Assembly: GCA_041750285.1 (NCBI GenBank)
Contig: JBGSZS010000018.1
Coordinates: 231,745 to 295,744 of the forward strand
Direction of reading: 5' to 3'
Source: Candidatus Fermentibacteraceae bacterium
GTDB lineage: Bacteria; Fermentibacterota; Fermentibacteria; Fermentibacterales; JCC-6
DNA: 64,000 bases
Shown: piece after piece, positions 7,599 to 63,557 of the stretch
Position numbering within the stretch: position 1 is the stretch's first letter
Layout of the letters: the number at the start of each line of letters is the position of its first letter
The notes under the pieces: model-generated
The model's input: only the letters and a program-made list of their open reading frames with translations
Database searches by the model: none
What the model was told of the DNA's origin: nothing
Program-made: the position numbers and the translations under genes

Positions 7599-8610
7599 GC
7601 CTGCCCTCCACGAGTACATCTCCGTCAAGAGCTTCCACCACGGGGTCTTCGAGCGTCAGGGCGCTGCCAACGTCGGTCACCCAGAGGTCGTGAAAAACCG
7701 GCACCCCGCTCCCTCCCAGAAGCTTGGGTGCAGTGAACACGCTCAGCCGGTCCACCAGACCCTCATTGACAAGGGCAGTCGCGAGACGGGGCCCACCCTC
7801 GCAGAGAACGAGTCCGATACCCATCGAAAGAGTGCGTGACAAAAGCTTCTCGAGCGAGCTGAATCTGATGACCTCTCCAGGAGGGTCCCAAGGGCACCCA
7901 TCCTGAACGGCCGTGATGGTTCGCGCCCCGTCTGAGTATACGTTCAGTTCCTGTGGAAGGGGGCTTCCGGCGACTATTATGCGAACCGGCAGGGGACCCT
8001 GCCGACCCGTCGAAAGGGTCGGATTGTCGCGCAGGGCGGTTCCGGCTCCCACCATCACGGCGTGGGCGGATTCCCGCATCGCTCTCACCCTCTCCCGGGC
8101 CGCGGCGCCGGTGATCCAGCGGCTGCTGCCGTCGGATGCCGCCGCCCTGCCGTCGAGTGAGACCGCCATCTTCAGATGAAGAAAGCTCCTGTGAGAATTC
8201 AGGCAGTGGATCCATACACGGTTCAACTCCCGCGCTTCGTTTTCCAGAAGACCGATCTCGACCTCCACCCCGTGCTCACGAAGCAGGGCTGCTCCCCTGC
8301 CGCTGACCCTGGGGTCGGGATCCTCCATGGCTGCCACGACACGCCCTATCCGCGATGCCAGGATGGCTTCCACGCACGGTGGGGTCCTGCCGTGATGAAC
8401 GCATGGCTCGAGCGTTACGACAAGGGTCGACCCCTCGAGGCTGCCGGAGGCCTTCCCGATTGCCGCGGCTTCGGCGTGGGGACCCCCGCAGCAGCTGTGA
8501 TGGGCTTCGGACAGGGTTTTGCCCCGGGGATCGAGGATGACGGCGCCAACCATGGGGTTGGGAAAGACACCGGGCCAGCCGTCGCGGGCCAGGGCAATTG
8601 CCCTGTTCAT
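7579..8610 (-). CDS. ribD: Bifunctional diaminohydroxyphosphoribosylaminopyrimidine deaminase / 5-amino-6-(5-phosphoribosylamino)uracil reductase
   Basis: Starts at the internal MNRAIALARDG. Deaminase motif HAEAAAI...PCVHHGRTPPC and a C-terminal reductase domain. The N-terminal 100 aa of the track ORF is rejected as arginine-rich GC shadow. Confidence 0.85.
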   Translation of the reverse strand: MNRAIALARDGWPGVFPNPMVGAVILDPRGKTLSEAHHSCCGGPHAEAAAIGKASGSLEGSTLVVTLEPCVHHGRTPPCVEAILASRIGRVVAAMEDPDPRVSGRGAALLREHGVEVEIGLLENEARELNRVWIHCLNSHRSFLHLKMAVSLDGRAAASDGSSRWITGAAARERVRAMRESAHAVMVGAGTALRDNPTLSTGRQGPLPVRIIVAGSPLPQELNVYSDGARTITAVQDGCPWDPPGEVIRFSSLEKLLSRTLSMGIGLVLCEGGPRLATALVNEGLVDRLSVFTAPKLLGGSGVPVFHDLWVTDVGSALTLEDPVVEALDGDVLVEGRLVYRAD

Positions 8611-35162: not shown

Positions 35163-36323
35163 CTACTTCAGAAGCAGTGCCGAAAGCTCGCCAGCCTTGT
35201 CGGTTCTTTCCCACCTGAACGAGCCGTCGCCGCCGTTCACCCTGCCAAAATGGCCGAATGAAGCCGTTTTTTCGAAAATGGGGCTTTTGAGGCCCAGTTC
35301 CTCGATTATGCCGTAAGGCCTGAGAGGGAAGATGTCGCGCACGGCCTTCTCGACCAGGCTGAGATCGCCAACCTTCTCCGTGCCGAAAGTGTCGATGCGA
35401 ACACTGAGCGGATCGGGGTACCCGATGGCATAGGCCAGCTGGATCTCGCAGCGGTCGGCTATCCCCGCGGCAACGAGGTTTTTCGCAATGTACCTTGCCA
35501 TGTAGGCGGCCGATCGGTCGACCTTGGTGCTGTCCTTCCCGCTGAATGCCCCGCCTCCGTGGCGCCCGGCGCCGCCGTAGGTGTCGACGATTATCTTGCG
35601 GCCCGTGAGACCGGTGTCGCCGTTGGGGCCGCCGATGACGAACCTGCCCGAGGGGTTGTAGAGAAGCTTCCCGGACCATTCGAGGCTTGGCACTATCACT
35701 TCAAGAACGGGGTCCACCACCTTGCTGCGGATCTCGCGGCTCATCTCATCGTTCGTGGCGTCTTCCGAGTGATGAACCGACATGAGTATCTCGGTTATCG
35801 CAACGGGCCGGTCGCCTTCGTACTGAACCGTGACCTGGCTCTTGGCGTCGGGTCTGGCCCAGGAGAGATTTCCGCGGCGGCGCTCTGTTGACAGCTTTTC
35901 GAGAAGCCTGTGAGCGAGATGGATGGGGTAGGGCATGAGGGCCTTGGTCTCGGTGCAGGCGAACCCGAACATCATGCCCTGGTCGCCGGCGCCCTGATTC
36001 GCCGTGACTCCGTTGTTGATGTCCTGGGACTGGGAGTGTATCCTGACCTGGTACTCGATCTCGTCTGCGCAAAAACCTATCCCCGGGATATCGTAGCCGA
36101 TGGACTTGATCGTTTCACGGGCCACATCGAGGTAGTCGACCTGTCCGTTGGCGCGAACCTCGCCGGCGACGAGGCAGAAATTGGTCGTGACAAGGGTCTC
36201 GCAGGCGACGTGGCTGTCGGGATCCTGCCTGAGATGGGCGTCCAGAACCGCGTCGGATATCTGGTCGCACACCTTGTCGGGGTGCCCTTCGGACACCGAT
36301 TCACTGGTGAAGAGCTTTCTCAT
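35163..36323 (-). CDS. metK: S-adenosylmethionine synthetase
   Basis: N-terminus MRKLFTSESVSEGHPDKVCDQISDA with GGAFSGKD and DRSAAY motifs. Confidence 0.95.
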   Translation of the reverse strand: MRKLFTSESVSEGHPDKVCDQISDAVLDAHLRQDPDSHVACETLVTTNFCLVAGEVRANGQVDYLDVARETIKSIGYDIPGIGFCADEIEYQVRIHSQSQDINNGVTANQGAGDQGMMFGFACTETKALMPYPIHLAHRLLEKLSTERRRGNLSWARPDAKSQVTVQYEGDRPVAITEILMSVHHSEDATNDEMSREIRSKVVDPVLEVIVPSLEWSGKLLYNPSGRFVIGGPNGDTGLTGRKIIVDTYGGAGRHGGGAFSGKDSTKVDRSAAYMARYIAKNLVAAGIADRCEIQLAYAIGYPDPLSVRIDTFGTEKVGDLSLVEKAVRDIFPLRPYGIIEELGLKSPIFEKTASFGHFGRVNGGDGSFRWERTDKAGELSALLLK

Positions 36324-36336
36324 CGATTACCTCCCG

Positions 36337-36362
36337 AAAAAAAATAGCCGTCGGCCGACGGC
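36337..36362 (-). promoter_or_regulatory. Leader hairpin plus U8 (intrinsic-terminator-like attenuator candidate) immediately 5' of the metK RBS
   Basis: Minus-sense GCCGTCGGCCGACGGC (perfect 16-nt palindrome) followed by UAUUUUUUUU, then GGGAGG and ATG. Confidence 0.5.
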
Positions 36363-36381
36363 TTGAGGCACAGCTGGCGGC

Positions 36382-36411
36382 ATTTTAGCACTTTTTTTAG
36401 CGTGGTTGCAA
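36382..36411 (-). promoter_or_regulatory. Sigma-70-like promoter upstream of the metK leader
   Basis: Minus-sense TTGCAA, 18-nt spacer, TAAAAT, in an AT-rich island. Confidence 0.5.
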
Positions 36412-36465
36412 TACGCCTCAAATCACTCCACGTTGACCGGAATATTGAGAAGATCACGGGCCCGG

Positions 36466-38211
36466 TCAATCCCGCGTGTCTTCTGCCAGCCCCGCTATCT
36501 GATCAAGGTTGTCGGGGTCGAGGTCTTCCCCCGAGGCGCTTACAGTTCGGGAAAGCCTTTCGCTGAGGGCATCCATGTCACCCGCATACCTGTTCACCAG
36601 GGCGTTGTTCTTCAGGGTCTCGCGGCGGGTTTCGAGGGTTCGGAGTTCTTCGTTTCTTCTTTCAGCTTCCATTTCACCCCACTGCTCGAGCCTTTTCTTC
36701 TCCAGATAGGCTTTGCCTGAGCTGTCGGGGAACAGGTAGTAAAGCATCTTTTCCTGCATGGTCCCGGCCAGCGGGAGGGTGGTTCCCGGGGCGAGGGGGA
36801 TCTCACGGTTGAAGGATGAGGAATCGTACTGGCGTTCATCCCTGAACCCGCAGACCTGCTGCCTGTAGTCGGGGCTGACCGGGAAGGGCGTCTTTCCGTA
36901 GTATCCGGCGATCAGGTTCACGAACTGCACCGGGTTGACATCCTTGCCCATTGCCGTGAAATACGCTTTCACGCCTACGATCTGGCTGGTGGGGGTGACA
37001 AGGGGGCACCAGCCGGCCTTCCGGCGGACCTCCTGAACGGCTTCGAGGGCTCTGCCGAGGTATTCGGACTTGTTGTCGCGGGCAAGCTGGTTCACGAAGT
37101 TGGAGTACATTCCGCCCGGGATCTGTGCTTCCAGGACCTTGAGGTTCGGCGGAGGGAAACCGCAGAGGGCCTCCATTTCATGAACAACCGCAAGGGCGTT
37201 CTCGATCCGCCCTTTCGCGAGGTGCTCGACGGCCTCCCCAGCCATGGGCAGCAAAACCTCGCGACCCGGCCAGACCGAACGGTGAACCTTCAGATTGAAC
37301 TGCGCTTCGCACTCGGAGACGACCTCGCGCATCTCCCGGTGAAGGGGTTCGAGGGTTGCGTCCGAAAGATCGAGCCCGGTTTCGATCCCCAGAACTTCGG
37401 CGAAAACCCCAAGAAGCTCGGCGGAGGGGTGGGAACTGCCGCCGGCAAGCGGAAGGAACGCCGTGTCGATCATGTCCACACCGCAGAGCATGGCGATCAC
37501 CGCTGAGATGTGGCCGTAGCCGGGAGTGCAGTGGGTGTGGCTGACCACGGGTACCGACAGCTTCGCCTTCAGCCCGCTGTAGTATTCCCACGCGTCGACA
37601 GGCGATTTAAGACCGGCCATGTCCTTGTCGCTGATCATGTCGGCGCCCATTTCCTGAAGTTCGAGCGCCTTTCTGACAAAGTGATCGGTGTCGTAGGGGG
37701 TGCCGGTGGTGTAGCACACCGCGGCGTCGAACGTGCCCCCGGCCTCGCGGACTCCCGCCAGCGCGGCCCTGAAATTGGGAACGTGGTTCAGCGCGTCGAA
37801 GATGCGCATGATGGTGGTGCCCGCCTTGACAGCCTCGCGGTTGAAGTCGCGAACTATGTCGTCGGGGTACGGATCGTAACCGAACAGGTTCTGCCCGCGT
37901 GAAAGGGTTCTGAGCCCGGCTCCGTAGGGGCGTGACTTCTCGCTCATGAGAGCAAGCCGGTCGAAGGGGTTCTCATCGAGGAACCGCATGGCGCTGTCAA
38001 GCACTGCGCCTCCCCAGACTTCCAGTGTTTTGACTCCGGTGTCGAGCACGGGCCCCATGAGCCTCATTACCTGTGCGGTGGACATCCTTGTCGCCAGAAG
38101 TGACTGCTGACCGTCACGAAGGGAGAGGTCGATGAATTGAACCTTTCCGGCACCGCTGCCCACCATTCTGGGGGCGGGTTTCAACCCTGCAAGAAGCCTG
38201 GATAGACGCAT
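36466..38211 (-). CDS. Carboxyltransferase (pyruvate carboxylase subunit B / oxaloacetate decarboxylase alpha / transcarboxylase 5S-like) lacking a biotinyl domain
   Basis: N-terminal TIM-barrel HMGL-like region (FIDLSLRDGQQSL..., HTHCTPGYG). The C-terminal ~90 aa is a charged coiled-coil tail with no biotin-attachment motif (AMKM). Confidence 0.7.
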   Translation of the reverse strand: MRLSRLLAGLKPAPRMVGSGAGKVQFIDLSLRDGQQSLLATRMSTAQVMRLMGPVLDTGVKTLEVWGGAVLDSAMRFLDENPFDRLALMSEKSRPYGAGLRTLSRGQNLFGYDPYPDDIVRDFNREAVKAGTTIMRIFDALNHVPNFRAALAGVREAGGTFDAAVCYTTGTPYDTDHFVRKALELQEMGADMISDKDMAGLKSPVDAWEYYSGLKAKLSVPVVSHTHCTPGYGHISAVIAMLCGVDMIDTAFLPLAGGSSHPSAELLGVFAEVLGIETGLDLSDATLEPLHREMREVVSECEAQFNLKVHRSVWPGREVLLPMAGEAVEHLAKGRIENALAVVHEMEALCGFPPPNLKVLEAQIPGGMYSNFVNQLARDNKSEYLGRALEAVQEVRRKAGWCPLVTPTSQIVGVKAYFTAMGKDVNPVQFVNLIAGYYGKTPFPVSPDYRQQVCGFRDERQYDSSSFNREIPLAPGTTLPLAGTMQEKMLYYLFPDSSGKAYLEKKRLEQWGEMEAERRNEELRTLETRRETLKNNALVNRYAGDMDALSERLSRTVSASGEDLDPDNLDQIAGLAEDTRD

Positions 38212-39384: not shown

Positions 39385-40383
39385 CTACCTGCCCGTGCTC
39401 CTGACCTGTTCCCAGAGAGCCTTCTCCCCGGGTGACAGGCCAGTGGGTATGCCCACGACAACGTGAACGAGCTGGTCGCCCTGAATGCCCCTTTGCACTG
39501 CTCCGCGGCCCCTGATCCTCATTACGGTGCCGGGCTGGGTTCCTTCGGGAACCTTGAGCCGCACCTTTCCGTCAAGCGTCCTTACCATGACCCTGGTTCC
39601 CAGGACGGCCTGCGCGGCAGTGATCCGCACGTCGCAGTGAATGTCGCGTCCATCCCTGCGCAGGAACCTGTCGGGAAGCACCCTGATCATCGCCTGCACG
39701 GTACCGCCGGCAGTCTGAATCCGCAGGACGCTTCCGTCCTCCACGCCTGCCGGAACGGTGACGGTAACCCTGTCGTTCGAGCCCGCCATGCCGGTTCCCC
39801 CGCAGGCTGCGCAGCGATTCGACAGCGTGTACCCCCTGCCTCCGCAGTTCTGGCATGGGTGGCTGGTGGAGAACAGCCCATGGCCGCTGGTCATCCTGCC
39901 GCTTCCGCCGCATGAGGCACAGGTTTCGCGGCCCGTCCCGCCGACTCCGCCGCAAGCGCTGCACTCAACGGGAACGTTGAGCACCGCCTCGACGGAACCT
40001 CCCCTCGCTGCCGTGGCGAAGGGAACGGCAAGGTCGACAGTGGGTTGCGGCCGTCTGGCCCGGCTGCCGAACCCGCCTCCGAATATGCCGCTGAGTATGT
40101 CGCCGAGTCCCCCGAAGCCTCCCTCGAAGTCCCCCCCGGGCATCCCGTCCTGGCCGAAGAATGTTCCACCGCCTTTTTTGGCGGCATCGTACCTGGCCCT
40201 TTTTCCGGGGTCACCAACGACGTCGTAGGCGTCCTGGATCTCCTTGAAGCGCTCTTCGGCTGCCCTGTCCCCGGGGTTGGCGTCAGGATGGTACTTCTTT
40301 GCGAGCTTCCTGTAGGCCTTCTTTATCTCGTCCTGACCGGCGTCTTCCGAAACCCCGAGGATCGAATAGGGATCCCTATTCAC
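39385..40383 (-). CDS. dnaJ: Molecular chaperone DnaJ
   Basis: J domain with HPD, a G/F region, four CxxCxGxG repeats and a C-terminal domain. Confidence 0.9.
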
Positions 40384-62608: not shown

Positions 62609-63525
62609 CGGCAAGAATACGGGTGCAGTCCGCCGGAAGAAGGGGCGTCGTACTGGCCCTGCCCGGCGGTGAGACCGTCAAGGCTTCGGTCTCGGGGATC
62701 GTCTATCGCGATTCGGGCGGACCGGTGTGCGGCGATGTGGTCGAGGCCGTACCTGAAAGCCCAAGATGGCGCGTGACGGCCATCTCTGAAAGAACCAGCG
62801 TTCTCACCCGCACCTCCCCCCTGGGAAAGCCTCAGGTACTGGCCGCCAACATCGACAGGGTCCTGGTGGTGGCATCCATCTGTTCCCCGGCCCTCAGAAG
62901 GGGTTTTCTCGACAGGGTCCTGGCTTCGGCTGAACACAGCGGTCTCAGCTGCTCGGTCGTTTTGAACAAGGCCGATCTTGCCGACCACCCCGAGGCCGCC
63001 TCGCTGCCCGAGATACAAAGGGTGTATGGCGAAGGGGCGGGGTACAGGGTCCTTGTGGTTTCGGCGAAAACCGGGATGGGCATGGAGCAGCTTTCCGCAT
63101 TCATAGAAGGGCAGACCGTTGTCCTCACAGGTCCCTCCGGGGCCGGCAAGTCGTCCGTAGCCATGAAGCTTAACCCCGGGCTGGATCTGGCGGTGGGCGC
63201 CCTGAATCGGAAAACCTCGCGGGGGCGCCACACAACCGTTGCTGCCAGGCTCCTGCACCTGTGGGGAGACACATGGATGATGGATACCCCGGGACTCAGG
63301 GCCTTTTCCATCGAGCACATACCGGACGATGAACTATGGCTGTGTTTCCCCGAGTTCAGGGGTCTCGAACCATGCCGCTACAGGAACTGCCTGCACGACT
63401 CAGAACCCGGTTGTCCCGTGCGTGACGGTGTGGCATCCGGCTCGATAGACCGGGATCGTTACGACTCTTATCTCAAGCTTCTTGGTGAGATACGGGAGGG
63501 ACGCCCCGTGGGCGTCCGGGAATGA
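62605..63525 (+). CDS. rsgA: Ribosome small-subunit-dependent GTPase A
   Basis: Internal start MTARIRV (ATGA overlap). Circularly permuted GTPase motifs (NKADL, GPSGAGKSS) and a C-terminal zinc module (CxHxxxxGC). Confidence 0.85.
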   Translation: MTARIRVQSAGRRGVVLALPGGETVKASVSGIVYRDSGGPVCGDVVEAVPESPRWRVTAISERTSVLTRTSPLGKPQVLAANIDRVLVVASICSPALRRGFLDRVLASAEHSGLSCSVVLNKADLADHPEAASLPEIQRVYGEGAGYRVLVVSAKTGMGMEQLSAFIEGQTVVLTGPSGAGKSSVAMKLNPGLDLAVGALNRKTSRGRHTTVAARLLHLWGDTWMMDTPGLRAFSIEHIPDDELWLCFPEFRGLEPCRYRNCLHDSEPGCPVRDGVASGSIDRDRYDSYLKLLGEIREGRPVGVRE

Positions 63526-63557
63526 AAAAAAGAAAGTTATCCGGTGTTTTCGTTTTC

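Follow-up and report, generated by a model that had tools for sequence, protein, structure and literature searches.

The question raised by this locus is how metK, the gene for S-adenosylmethionine (SAM) synthetase, is controlled from the short gap in front of it. The window, which here denotes the whole 64,000-nt stretch of DNA that was analysed, carries metK on the minus strand, and an earlier sequence-only reading had noted in its leader a promoter, a perfect hairpin followed by a U tract, a ribosome binding site (RBS) and a start codon, and had proposed an attenuator or the expression platform of an unrecognised SAM-responsive element. The follow-up favours a riboswitch of the SAM-II class that would repress SAM synthetase via the terminator when SAM is plentiful (probability about 0.85); how SAM would control termination here is put forward as a model. 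The features on which the argument draws are as follows.

35163–36323, minus strand: metK, the regulated gene, encoding an S-adenosylmethionine synthetase of 386 aa (Pfam PF00438, PF02772 and PF02773)
36321–36335, minus strand: RBS GGGAGG (36335–36330) and metK start codon ATG (36323–36321)
36337–36363, minus strand: intrinsic-terminator-type hairpin AGCCGUC-GGCC-GACGGCU (36363–36346), then A and U8 (36344–36337)
36363–36369, minus strand: ‘far’ strand GCCUCAA, a putative decoy, directly adjoining the terminator stem
36370–36378, minus strand: variable insert GCCAGCUGU, separating the near P2a strand from the far strand
36375–36437, minus strand: SAM-II riboswitch aptamer, an H-type pseudoknot, assigned from RF01726, RF00521, a purpose-built covariance model and covariation
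36432–36428 with 36405–36401, minus strand: aptamer P1, CGUGG with CCACG
36422–36420, minus strand: aptamer L1, UUU
36417–36415 with 36381–36379, minus strand: aptamer P2a, 5′ strand GGC and 3′ (‘near’) strand GCC
36411–36408 with 36389–36384, minus strand: aptamer P2b, 5′ strand UUGC and 3′ strand GCUAAA
36398–36392, minus strand: aptamer L3, A7
36382–36411, minus strand: TTGCAA-18-TAAAAT, the promoter of the sequence-only reading, made up of the P2b 5′ strand, the P1 3′ strand, L3 and the P2b 3′ strand
36441–36469, minus strand: probable σ70-type promoter TTGACC-17-AATATT, from a consensus scan and a position kept in relatives (–35 TTGACC at 36469–36464, overlapping the TGA stop of the upstream ORF; –10 AATATT at 36446–36441)
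36466–38211, minus strand, as metK: upstream ORF of 581 aa

The 142 nt at 36324–36465 are the exact gap between metK and the 581-aa ORF, whose orthologues contain HMGL-like and PYC_OADA domains, and no terminator was seen between this ORF and the metK promoter. In a protein database search, the metK product is 66–93% identical to S-adenosylmethionine synthetases of Candidatus Fermentibacterota; the sources name these relatives Candidatus Fermentibacteria, Aegiribacteria or Sabulitectum, all of which belong to this phylum of the FCB group.

The hairpin is built on a perfect 16-nt palindrome, GCCGTCGGCCGACGGC, at 36362–36347 of the minus strand, and with the flanking A-U pair its stem comprises 7 bp (five of them G-C) closed by a 4-nt loop (36363–36346). 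Reading on along the minus strand, it is followed by A, U8, C, GGGAGG, the six nucleotides UAAUCG and AUG. The window has a G+C content of 61%, and on both strands together contains three runs of at least seven T, two of which lie inside the 142-nt gap; perfect 16-nt palindromes likewise number three, the metK hairpin included, and this hairpin ranks first of only five strong terminator-like sites in the 64 kb and is also the top site in a 14-kb consensus scan. Given this scarcity, the combination of hairpin, U tract, RBS and ATG described in the sequence-only reading is real rather than a product of chance. The interpretation as an intrinsic terminator inside the metK leader is borne out by comparison with relatives, as hairpin and U tract are kept in 33 of 35 related leaders and the stem covaries, with GCCGUC/GACGGC, GCCGCC/GGCGGC and ACCGCCG/CGGCGGU all seen and pair 82/90 changed from U-A to C-G in 13 sequences. 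L167 and L091 keep the hairpin or the decoy while lacking a U tract. The other two perfect 16-nt palindromes of the window, CAGGGCAATTGCCCTG and AATAGGGATCCCTATT, are located at 8590–8605 and 40365–40380, and the third run of T at 63525–63531 (minus strand).

The Rfam scan that had been proposed for the leader gave a SAM-II match. When 36200–36600 was scanned by E-value, RF01726 (‘SAM-II long loop’) matched over its full length at 36437–36375 with 43.9 bits (gathering score 44, E = 2.8e-7), and RF00521 (SAM-II/SAM_alpha) matched the same aptamer with 30.7 bits, about 5 bits under its gathering score of 36. A separate gathering-threshold scan of the whole window reported nothing, because the RF01726 score falls 0.1 bit short. 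Orthologous leaders do pass: seven Fermentibacterota metK leaders exceed the RF01726 gathering score (L119 46.9, L157 46.5, L131 46.3, L097 46.2, L087 44.7, L082 44.5 and L089 44.5), and three exceed that of RF00521 (L092 45.3, L131 37.7 and L157 37.2, the latter two passing both), as do four of the six scanned elements from other clades. The SAM-responsive element suspected earlier is thus upheld through SAM-II membership, whereas its description as unrecognised is not. Within 36200–36600 there was no match to RF00162 (SAM-I, the four-way-junction aptamer) up to E = 10, and none to SAM-V (RF01826) or the SAM-III/SMK box. A covariance model built from 71 related aptamers finds exactly one copy in the window, at 79.4 bits; the same model detects no aptamer in front of metK in any of 80 genomes from other phyla (MetK identity of 58% or less; among the matches listed, one genome per GTDB species).

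Relatives were gathered by a protein database search with MetK and a look-up of the contigs encoding the hits, and in all 12 loci fetched in this way metK is preceded by the same leader. A search of metagenome contigs with a pattern describing the aptamer core returned 99 stretches, approximately 90 of them distinct, of which about eight look like chance matches in coding DNA. The genes downstream of the pattern matches are metK (in two clades, the second with a MetK ~54% identical to that of the window) and metH-like, metF-like and cystathionine-gamma-synthase-like genes, the non-metK ORFs having been named by eye from their N-terminal sequence.

The covariation check, also proposed earlier, was carried out on 74 related aptamers aligned to a model that encodes P1 alone, with P1, P2a and P2b counted together. 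Over these helices 98.1% of cells are paired, compared with 28–57% in controls slid out of register, and 65 cells are changed on both sides as opposed to 14.6 in shuffles, with none of 500 shuffles reaching the observed value. P1 is 98.4% paired and three of its five pairs show changes on both sides; its outer pair is CG in 37 sequences, AU in 14, UA in 10 and GC in 6, and a change from U-A to C-G is seen in 17. The P1 alignment was fitted by the covariance model and is hence biased towards P1, although a raw MAFFT alignment gives the same complementary changes. The columns of P2a lie outside the structure of the alignment model; P2a (GGC:GCC in the window) is 95% paired, and in two of its pairs both partners change, one from GC to CG or AU and the other from CG to UA. 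The invariance of P2b is uninformative either way, because the search pattern fixed it.

In the SAM-II crystal structure, the nucleotides that contact SAM are U10–U12, U21/G22 and U44–A46 (PMC3303485). The window matches the ligand-contacting positions with UUU 36422–36420, U36410–G36409, the unpaired U36387 and A36386–A36385, and by a mapping made through sequence alignment to the Rfam consensus, the L1 UUU, the U-G step and the U and A-A of GCUAAA would correspond to these three groups respectively. By homology and covariation, the metK leader element is a SAM-II aptamer, and SAM binding would follow from its family membership. The arrangement of promoter, aptamer, intrinsic terminator and RBS is the one described in 2005, and the metK leader therefore belongs to the known SAM-II class.

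The sequence-only reading had seen no SAM-II consensus, yet the consensus is the very sequence that it had taken for a promoter, UUGCAACC ... AAAAAAAGUGCUAAAA. The hexamers TTGCAA (36411–36406) and TAAAAT (36387–36382) are literally present with their 18-nt spacer, so that this part of the observation stands; they sit, however, on the conserved UUGCAACC and GCUAAAA of the RF01726 model, and since both are near-invariant aptamer positions they do not constitute evidence of a promoter. The –10-like hexamer lacks its final T in most leaders, as 32 of 35 relatives read TAAAAA or TAAAAG, and its distance to the palindrome is 19 nt instead of the ~25 nt given before. The real metK promoter is probably TTGACC-17-AATATT, which stops 8 nt short of P1. 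Of 35 distinct Fermentibacterota leaders, 23 contain a promoter with 9 or more of the 12 positions matched, as against 0.7% of background windows, and in related leaders the –10 most often ends 5–10 nt before P1. Transcription would most likely start near 36433–36435, 1–3 nt before P1, and the leader would most likely be ~111 nt long, beginning ~50 nt upstream of the start previously assumed and superseding the earlier estimate of ~65 nt.

Attenuation by a leader peptide can be rejected, as the leader AUG is missing from most relatives and there is no conserved leader ORF. The only AUG in the leader (36383–36381) is present in the window, L081 and L159 alone, and exists because the window reads GCUAAAAUGCC where 32 of 35 relatives read AAAAAGCC or AAAAGGCC, with no AUG. 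The 18-codon ORF that it opens (AUG CCG CCA ... AGG UAA; 36327–36383, minus strand) spans the terminator and RBS, and is probably non-functional.

Between the aptamer and the terminator lies a second strand with complementarity to the aptamer. The far strand GCCUCAA is complementary to the aptamer loop strand UUGAGGC (36421–36415); in 27 of 35 related leaders the match extends to all 7 pairs, and 92% of cells are paired in alignment A1. A loop C always faces a far G (11 of 11), while a loop U faces A (9) or G (7), giving a Fisher p = 0.003 that ignores kinship. In L091, a change of the loop GGC to GAC is matched in both the near strand (GUC) and the far strand (UCCC). The loop:far helix takes up two L1 uridines and the P2a nucleotides and so cannot coexist with the SAM-bound fold, and this incompatibility is the reason for reading it as the SAM-free alternative, probably an antiterminator-like state. 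A similar decoy occurs in the second metK clade, as a CCUCAA in a hairpin loop between two terminators. Two other assignments of these strands were considered. That the far strand forms the real P2a when SAM is bound is unlikely, the near GCC being in the canonical P2a position and covarying across clades, with L091 compensating in both strands. The insert and near strand read (U)GCCGCC in the window and AGCCGUC, a copy of the terminator 5′ arm, in relatives, which thus contain AGCCGUC twice; the near strand could pair with the terminator 3′ arm over 5–7 bp, and was set aside as an antiterminator because it is unable to pre-empt the adjacent 5′ arm, kinetically or thermodynamically.

Predicted folds give a mixed account of this alternative. 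In the lowest-energy fold of the full-length leader of the window, the far helix is stacked on the terminator with both present, the two overlapping by just 1–2 bp, so that thermodynamics alone predicts no switch. When the RNA extends only to the terminator loop, the lowest-energy fold contains the loop:far helix, or loop:5′ arm pairing in L092, in 16 of 20 relatives. The nascent fold is a long imperfect hairpin in which the far helix mostly runs on, GUGG of the P1 5′ strand pairing with CCGC/CCGU of the terminator 5′ arm; in the L092 clade it is the loop itself, GGGGCG, that pairs directly with CGCCCC of the 5′ arm. The P1 5′:terminator 5′ pairing of the window amounts to ~4 bp, two of them wobbles, and RNAalifold on transcripts cut before the terminator 3′ arm returned P1 and a small GCU/AGC hairpin with no far helix. 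It is plausible that the nascent far-helix hairpin acts as a kinetic antiterminator that also unzips the aptamer, weakly so in the window.

In the mechanism proposed here, transcription would start from TTGACC-17-AATATT, 1–3 nt before P1, and the first ~60 nt would fold into the SAM-II H-type pseudoknot, comprising P1, a U-rich L1, and P2b/P2a, which join the P1 loop to the 3′ tail GCUAAAAUGCC; homology and covariation show this fold. On SAM binding, the loop strand UUGAGGC would be kept in the L1 triplex and in P2a with the near GCC, allowing the AGCCGUC/GACGGCU hairpin with its U8 to form and to stop transcription 14–21 nt before the metK ATG, just upstream of the RBS. Without SAM, the loop strand would pair instead with the far GCCUCAA, the helix being extended by GUGG (P1 5′) with CCGU/CCGC (terminator 5′ arm); this would open the aptamer, delay the terminator and let metK be transcribed, which is the weakest step of the model. 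The far strand may have a second role, in that its CCUC, which is anti-Shine-Dalgarno-like, could when freed mask the RBS in read-through transcripts. More generally, it is tentatively suggested that the switching sequence of this SAM-II subfamily is the 5′ (loop) strand of the pseudoknot and not its 3′ tail, with a decoy of the form (G/A)CCUC(A/G)(A/G) that captures UUGAGG in the absence of SAM as a second, mutually exclusive pseudoknot and couples the aptamer to the terminator, the RBS or both; this would apply to the metK leaders of Fermentibacterota and to one or more further metK clades.

The main competitor of control by termination accepts the aptamer as a true SAM-II and places the regulation in translation. 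The terminator would then be constitutive, if leaky, and would also end transcripts of the upstream gene, whose ORF is separated from the metK promoter by no terminator of its own; SAM would release the far CCUC to pair with GGGAGG across the base of the hairpin, while in its absence the loop would hold the CCUC. The coexistence of far helix and terminator in predicted folds is compatible with such a scheme, as are the 6-bp pairing possible between UGCCUC and the GAGGUA of the RBS, the retention of a hairpin or decoy in L167 and L091 where the U tract is missing, and two precedents, Sinorhizobium meliloti metA, where no SAM response is predicted for the terminator that follows the SAM-II aptamer (PMC9373788), and the Sargasso metX SAM-II, which sequesters its SD. 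However, far:RBS duplexes are no more stable in matched (–8.1 kcal/mol) than in mismatched combinations (–8.3 kcal/mol), so that there is no sign of co-evolution beyond a generic CCUC:GAGG match, and the AAAGG-type RBSs of several relatives are poor pairing partners for CCUC. Moreover, 33 of 35 relatives retain a near-ideal terminator, a kind of site that is very scarce in the genome. A translational switch of this kind is judged unlikely.

The remaining explanations dispense with the aptamer and are far less probable. Transcription from TTGCAA-18-TAAAAT, giving a ~65-nt leader with the hairpin alone as an attenuator or as the platform of an unknown SAM sensor, can appeal to a promoter score of 9/12 and a TG before the –10, but both hexamers belong to the aptamer and are conserved in clades that each have a promoter of their own further upstream; besides the missing final T and the lack of a conserved leader ORF, a start at this point would cost an aptamer under clear selection its P1, its L1 and half of its P2, which leaves this origin of the transcript very improbable. 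That the hairpin merely terminates the upstream carboxyltransferase-like gene, the SAM-II likeness being fortuitous, is scarcely credible. The hairpin is indeed the first terminator-like site downstream of that ORF, yet aptamer and hairpin stay with metK at L089 and L090, which have a divergent TPR gene upstream, and the aptamer, without the U-tract hairpin, stays at L091, which has a different same-strand gene in that place; covariation and gene association further show that the aptamer is real.

Set against known systems, the leader resembles SAM-II (the metA element; RF00521, RF01726; Corbino et al. 2005, Weinberg et al. 2010) in its P1 and H-type pseudoknot, in the GAUUUG of L1, the UUGCA of the P2b 5′ strand, the A-rich L3 and the GCUAAA of the P2b 3′ strand, and in having a promoter a few nucleotides before P1, an intrinsic terminator between P2 and the ORF and a position upstream of Met/SAM genes. 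The same promoter-aptamer-terminator arrangement was reported for SAM-II by Corbino et al. 2005, and SAM-II was found to be mostly associated with terminators by Barrick and Breaker 2007, with the control mechanism not established. It differs in its Fermentibacterota host (SAM-II having been reported from Proteobacteria, Bacteroidetes and marine metagenomes), in metK as the regulated gene, in a short P2a (3–5 bp) followed by an insert of 9–16 nt, and in the second, loop-complementary strand. In S. meliloti, the SAM-II aptamers of metZ and metA are likewise followed by a Rho-independent terminator, and a short riboswitch RNA results (Scheuer et al. 2022, PMC9373788); the metA terminator shows no obvious coupling to SAM, and a GAGG resembling an SD takes part in the switch. 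The SD-like sequence is there in the P2 3′ strand, whereas the metK element, known from sequence, has GAGG in the loop (5′) strand and a separate CCUC by the terminator.

The SAM-I (S-box) metK leaders of Firmicutes are also SAM-sensing OFF switches with a terminator upstream of metK, built on a different and larger four-way-junction aptamer. Published work on a spermidine variant concerns SAM-I and has no bearing here. SAM-V (RF01826) and the SAM-III/SMK box are, like SAM-II, small SAM sensors upstream of Met/SAM genes; SAM-V shares the binding-pocket architecture of SAM-II, the SMK box controls metK, and both act by SD sequestration.

The novelty is modest and resides in the host phylum and the loop:decoy pairing. 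The literature searched contained no mention of Fermentibacter together with a riboswitch and no description of a loop-complementary decoy strand for SAM-II. With this assignment SAM-II extends to Candidatus Fermentibacterota, an FCB-group phylum without cultured members for which no published report of it was found, and a riboswitch is gained that falls 0.1 bit short in a standard Rfam scan at the gathering threshold. The loop:decoy pairing is a concrete candidate for the link between SAM-II aptamers and terminators and, if true, loop-strand switching could explain the control of terminators by SAM-II that the literature calls unestablished. The locus also illustrates that A/U-rich riboswitch cores can resemble σ70 promoters in high-G+C genomes.

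Several minor features emerged from the related leaders. A conserved UCGGCU(GAG) follows directly after the terminator U tract in the Aegiribacteria-like L089, L117, L119, L124, L131, L143, L145, L147, L164, L166 and L169, and is absent from the metK leader clade of the window itself; it is complementary to the near strand AGCCGA and in part to the far strand CUCAG, which suggests an outer helix around the terminator beside the RBS in these leaders. At L092:2230-2330, upstream of the metK promoter of that locus, a perfect inverted repeat of ~40 nt (GATCGGTTTTAACTATTGATCCTAACTC ... GAGTTAGGATCAATAGTTAAAACCGATC) lies between the upstream gene and the metK leader and looks like a small mobile or palindromic element.

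The second SAM-II metK clade comprises L098, L103-L106, L116, L118, L122, L127, L135, L137, L144, L155, L158, L163, L172, L176, L180 and L190, viewed over ~175 nt after each aptamer. Its leaders are ordered as aptamer, terminator 1, a small hairpin GUCU-CCUCAA-AGAC, terminator 2 and AAGGAGG; terminator 1 has a classical antiterminator (GCCGG:CUGGC) and has lost its U tract in L105, L135 and L137. The CCUCAA loop of the small hairpin complements the aptamer loop UUGAGG, and L180, the sole member with an aptamer loop UUGAGAU, instead carries a matching AUCUCGG after terminator 2.

Cystathionine-gamma-synthase-like genes have SAM-II aptamers upstream in L101, L126, L136, L138, L139, L141, L150, L160, L174, L178 and others, in leaders of ~130 nt without a U-tract terminator. 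CCCCGA complements their loop UUGGGG and at the same time forms the 3′ arm of a hairpin starting at the near strand (GCCGGGG), and this looks like another loop-competition platform. SAM-II aptamers additionally occur in tandem, with two ~45 nt apart in L120 (L120:10264-10431) and in L114 (L114:207-364), and three within ~850 nt at L149:961-1803, two of them upstream of short ORFs.
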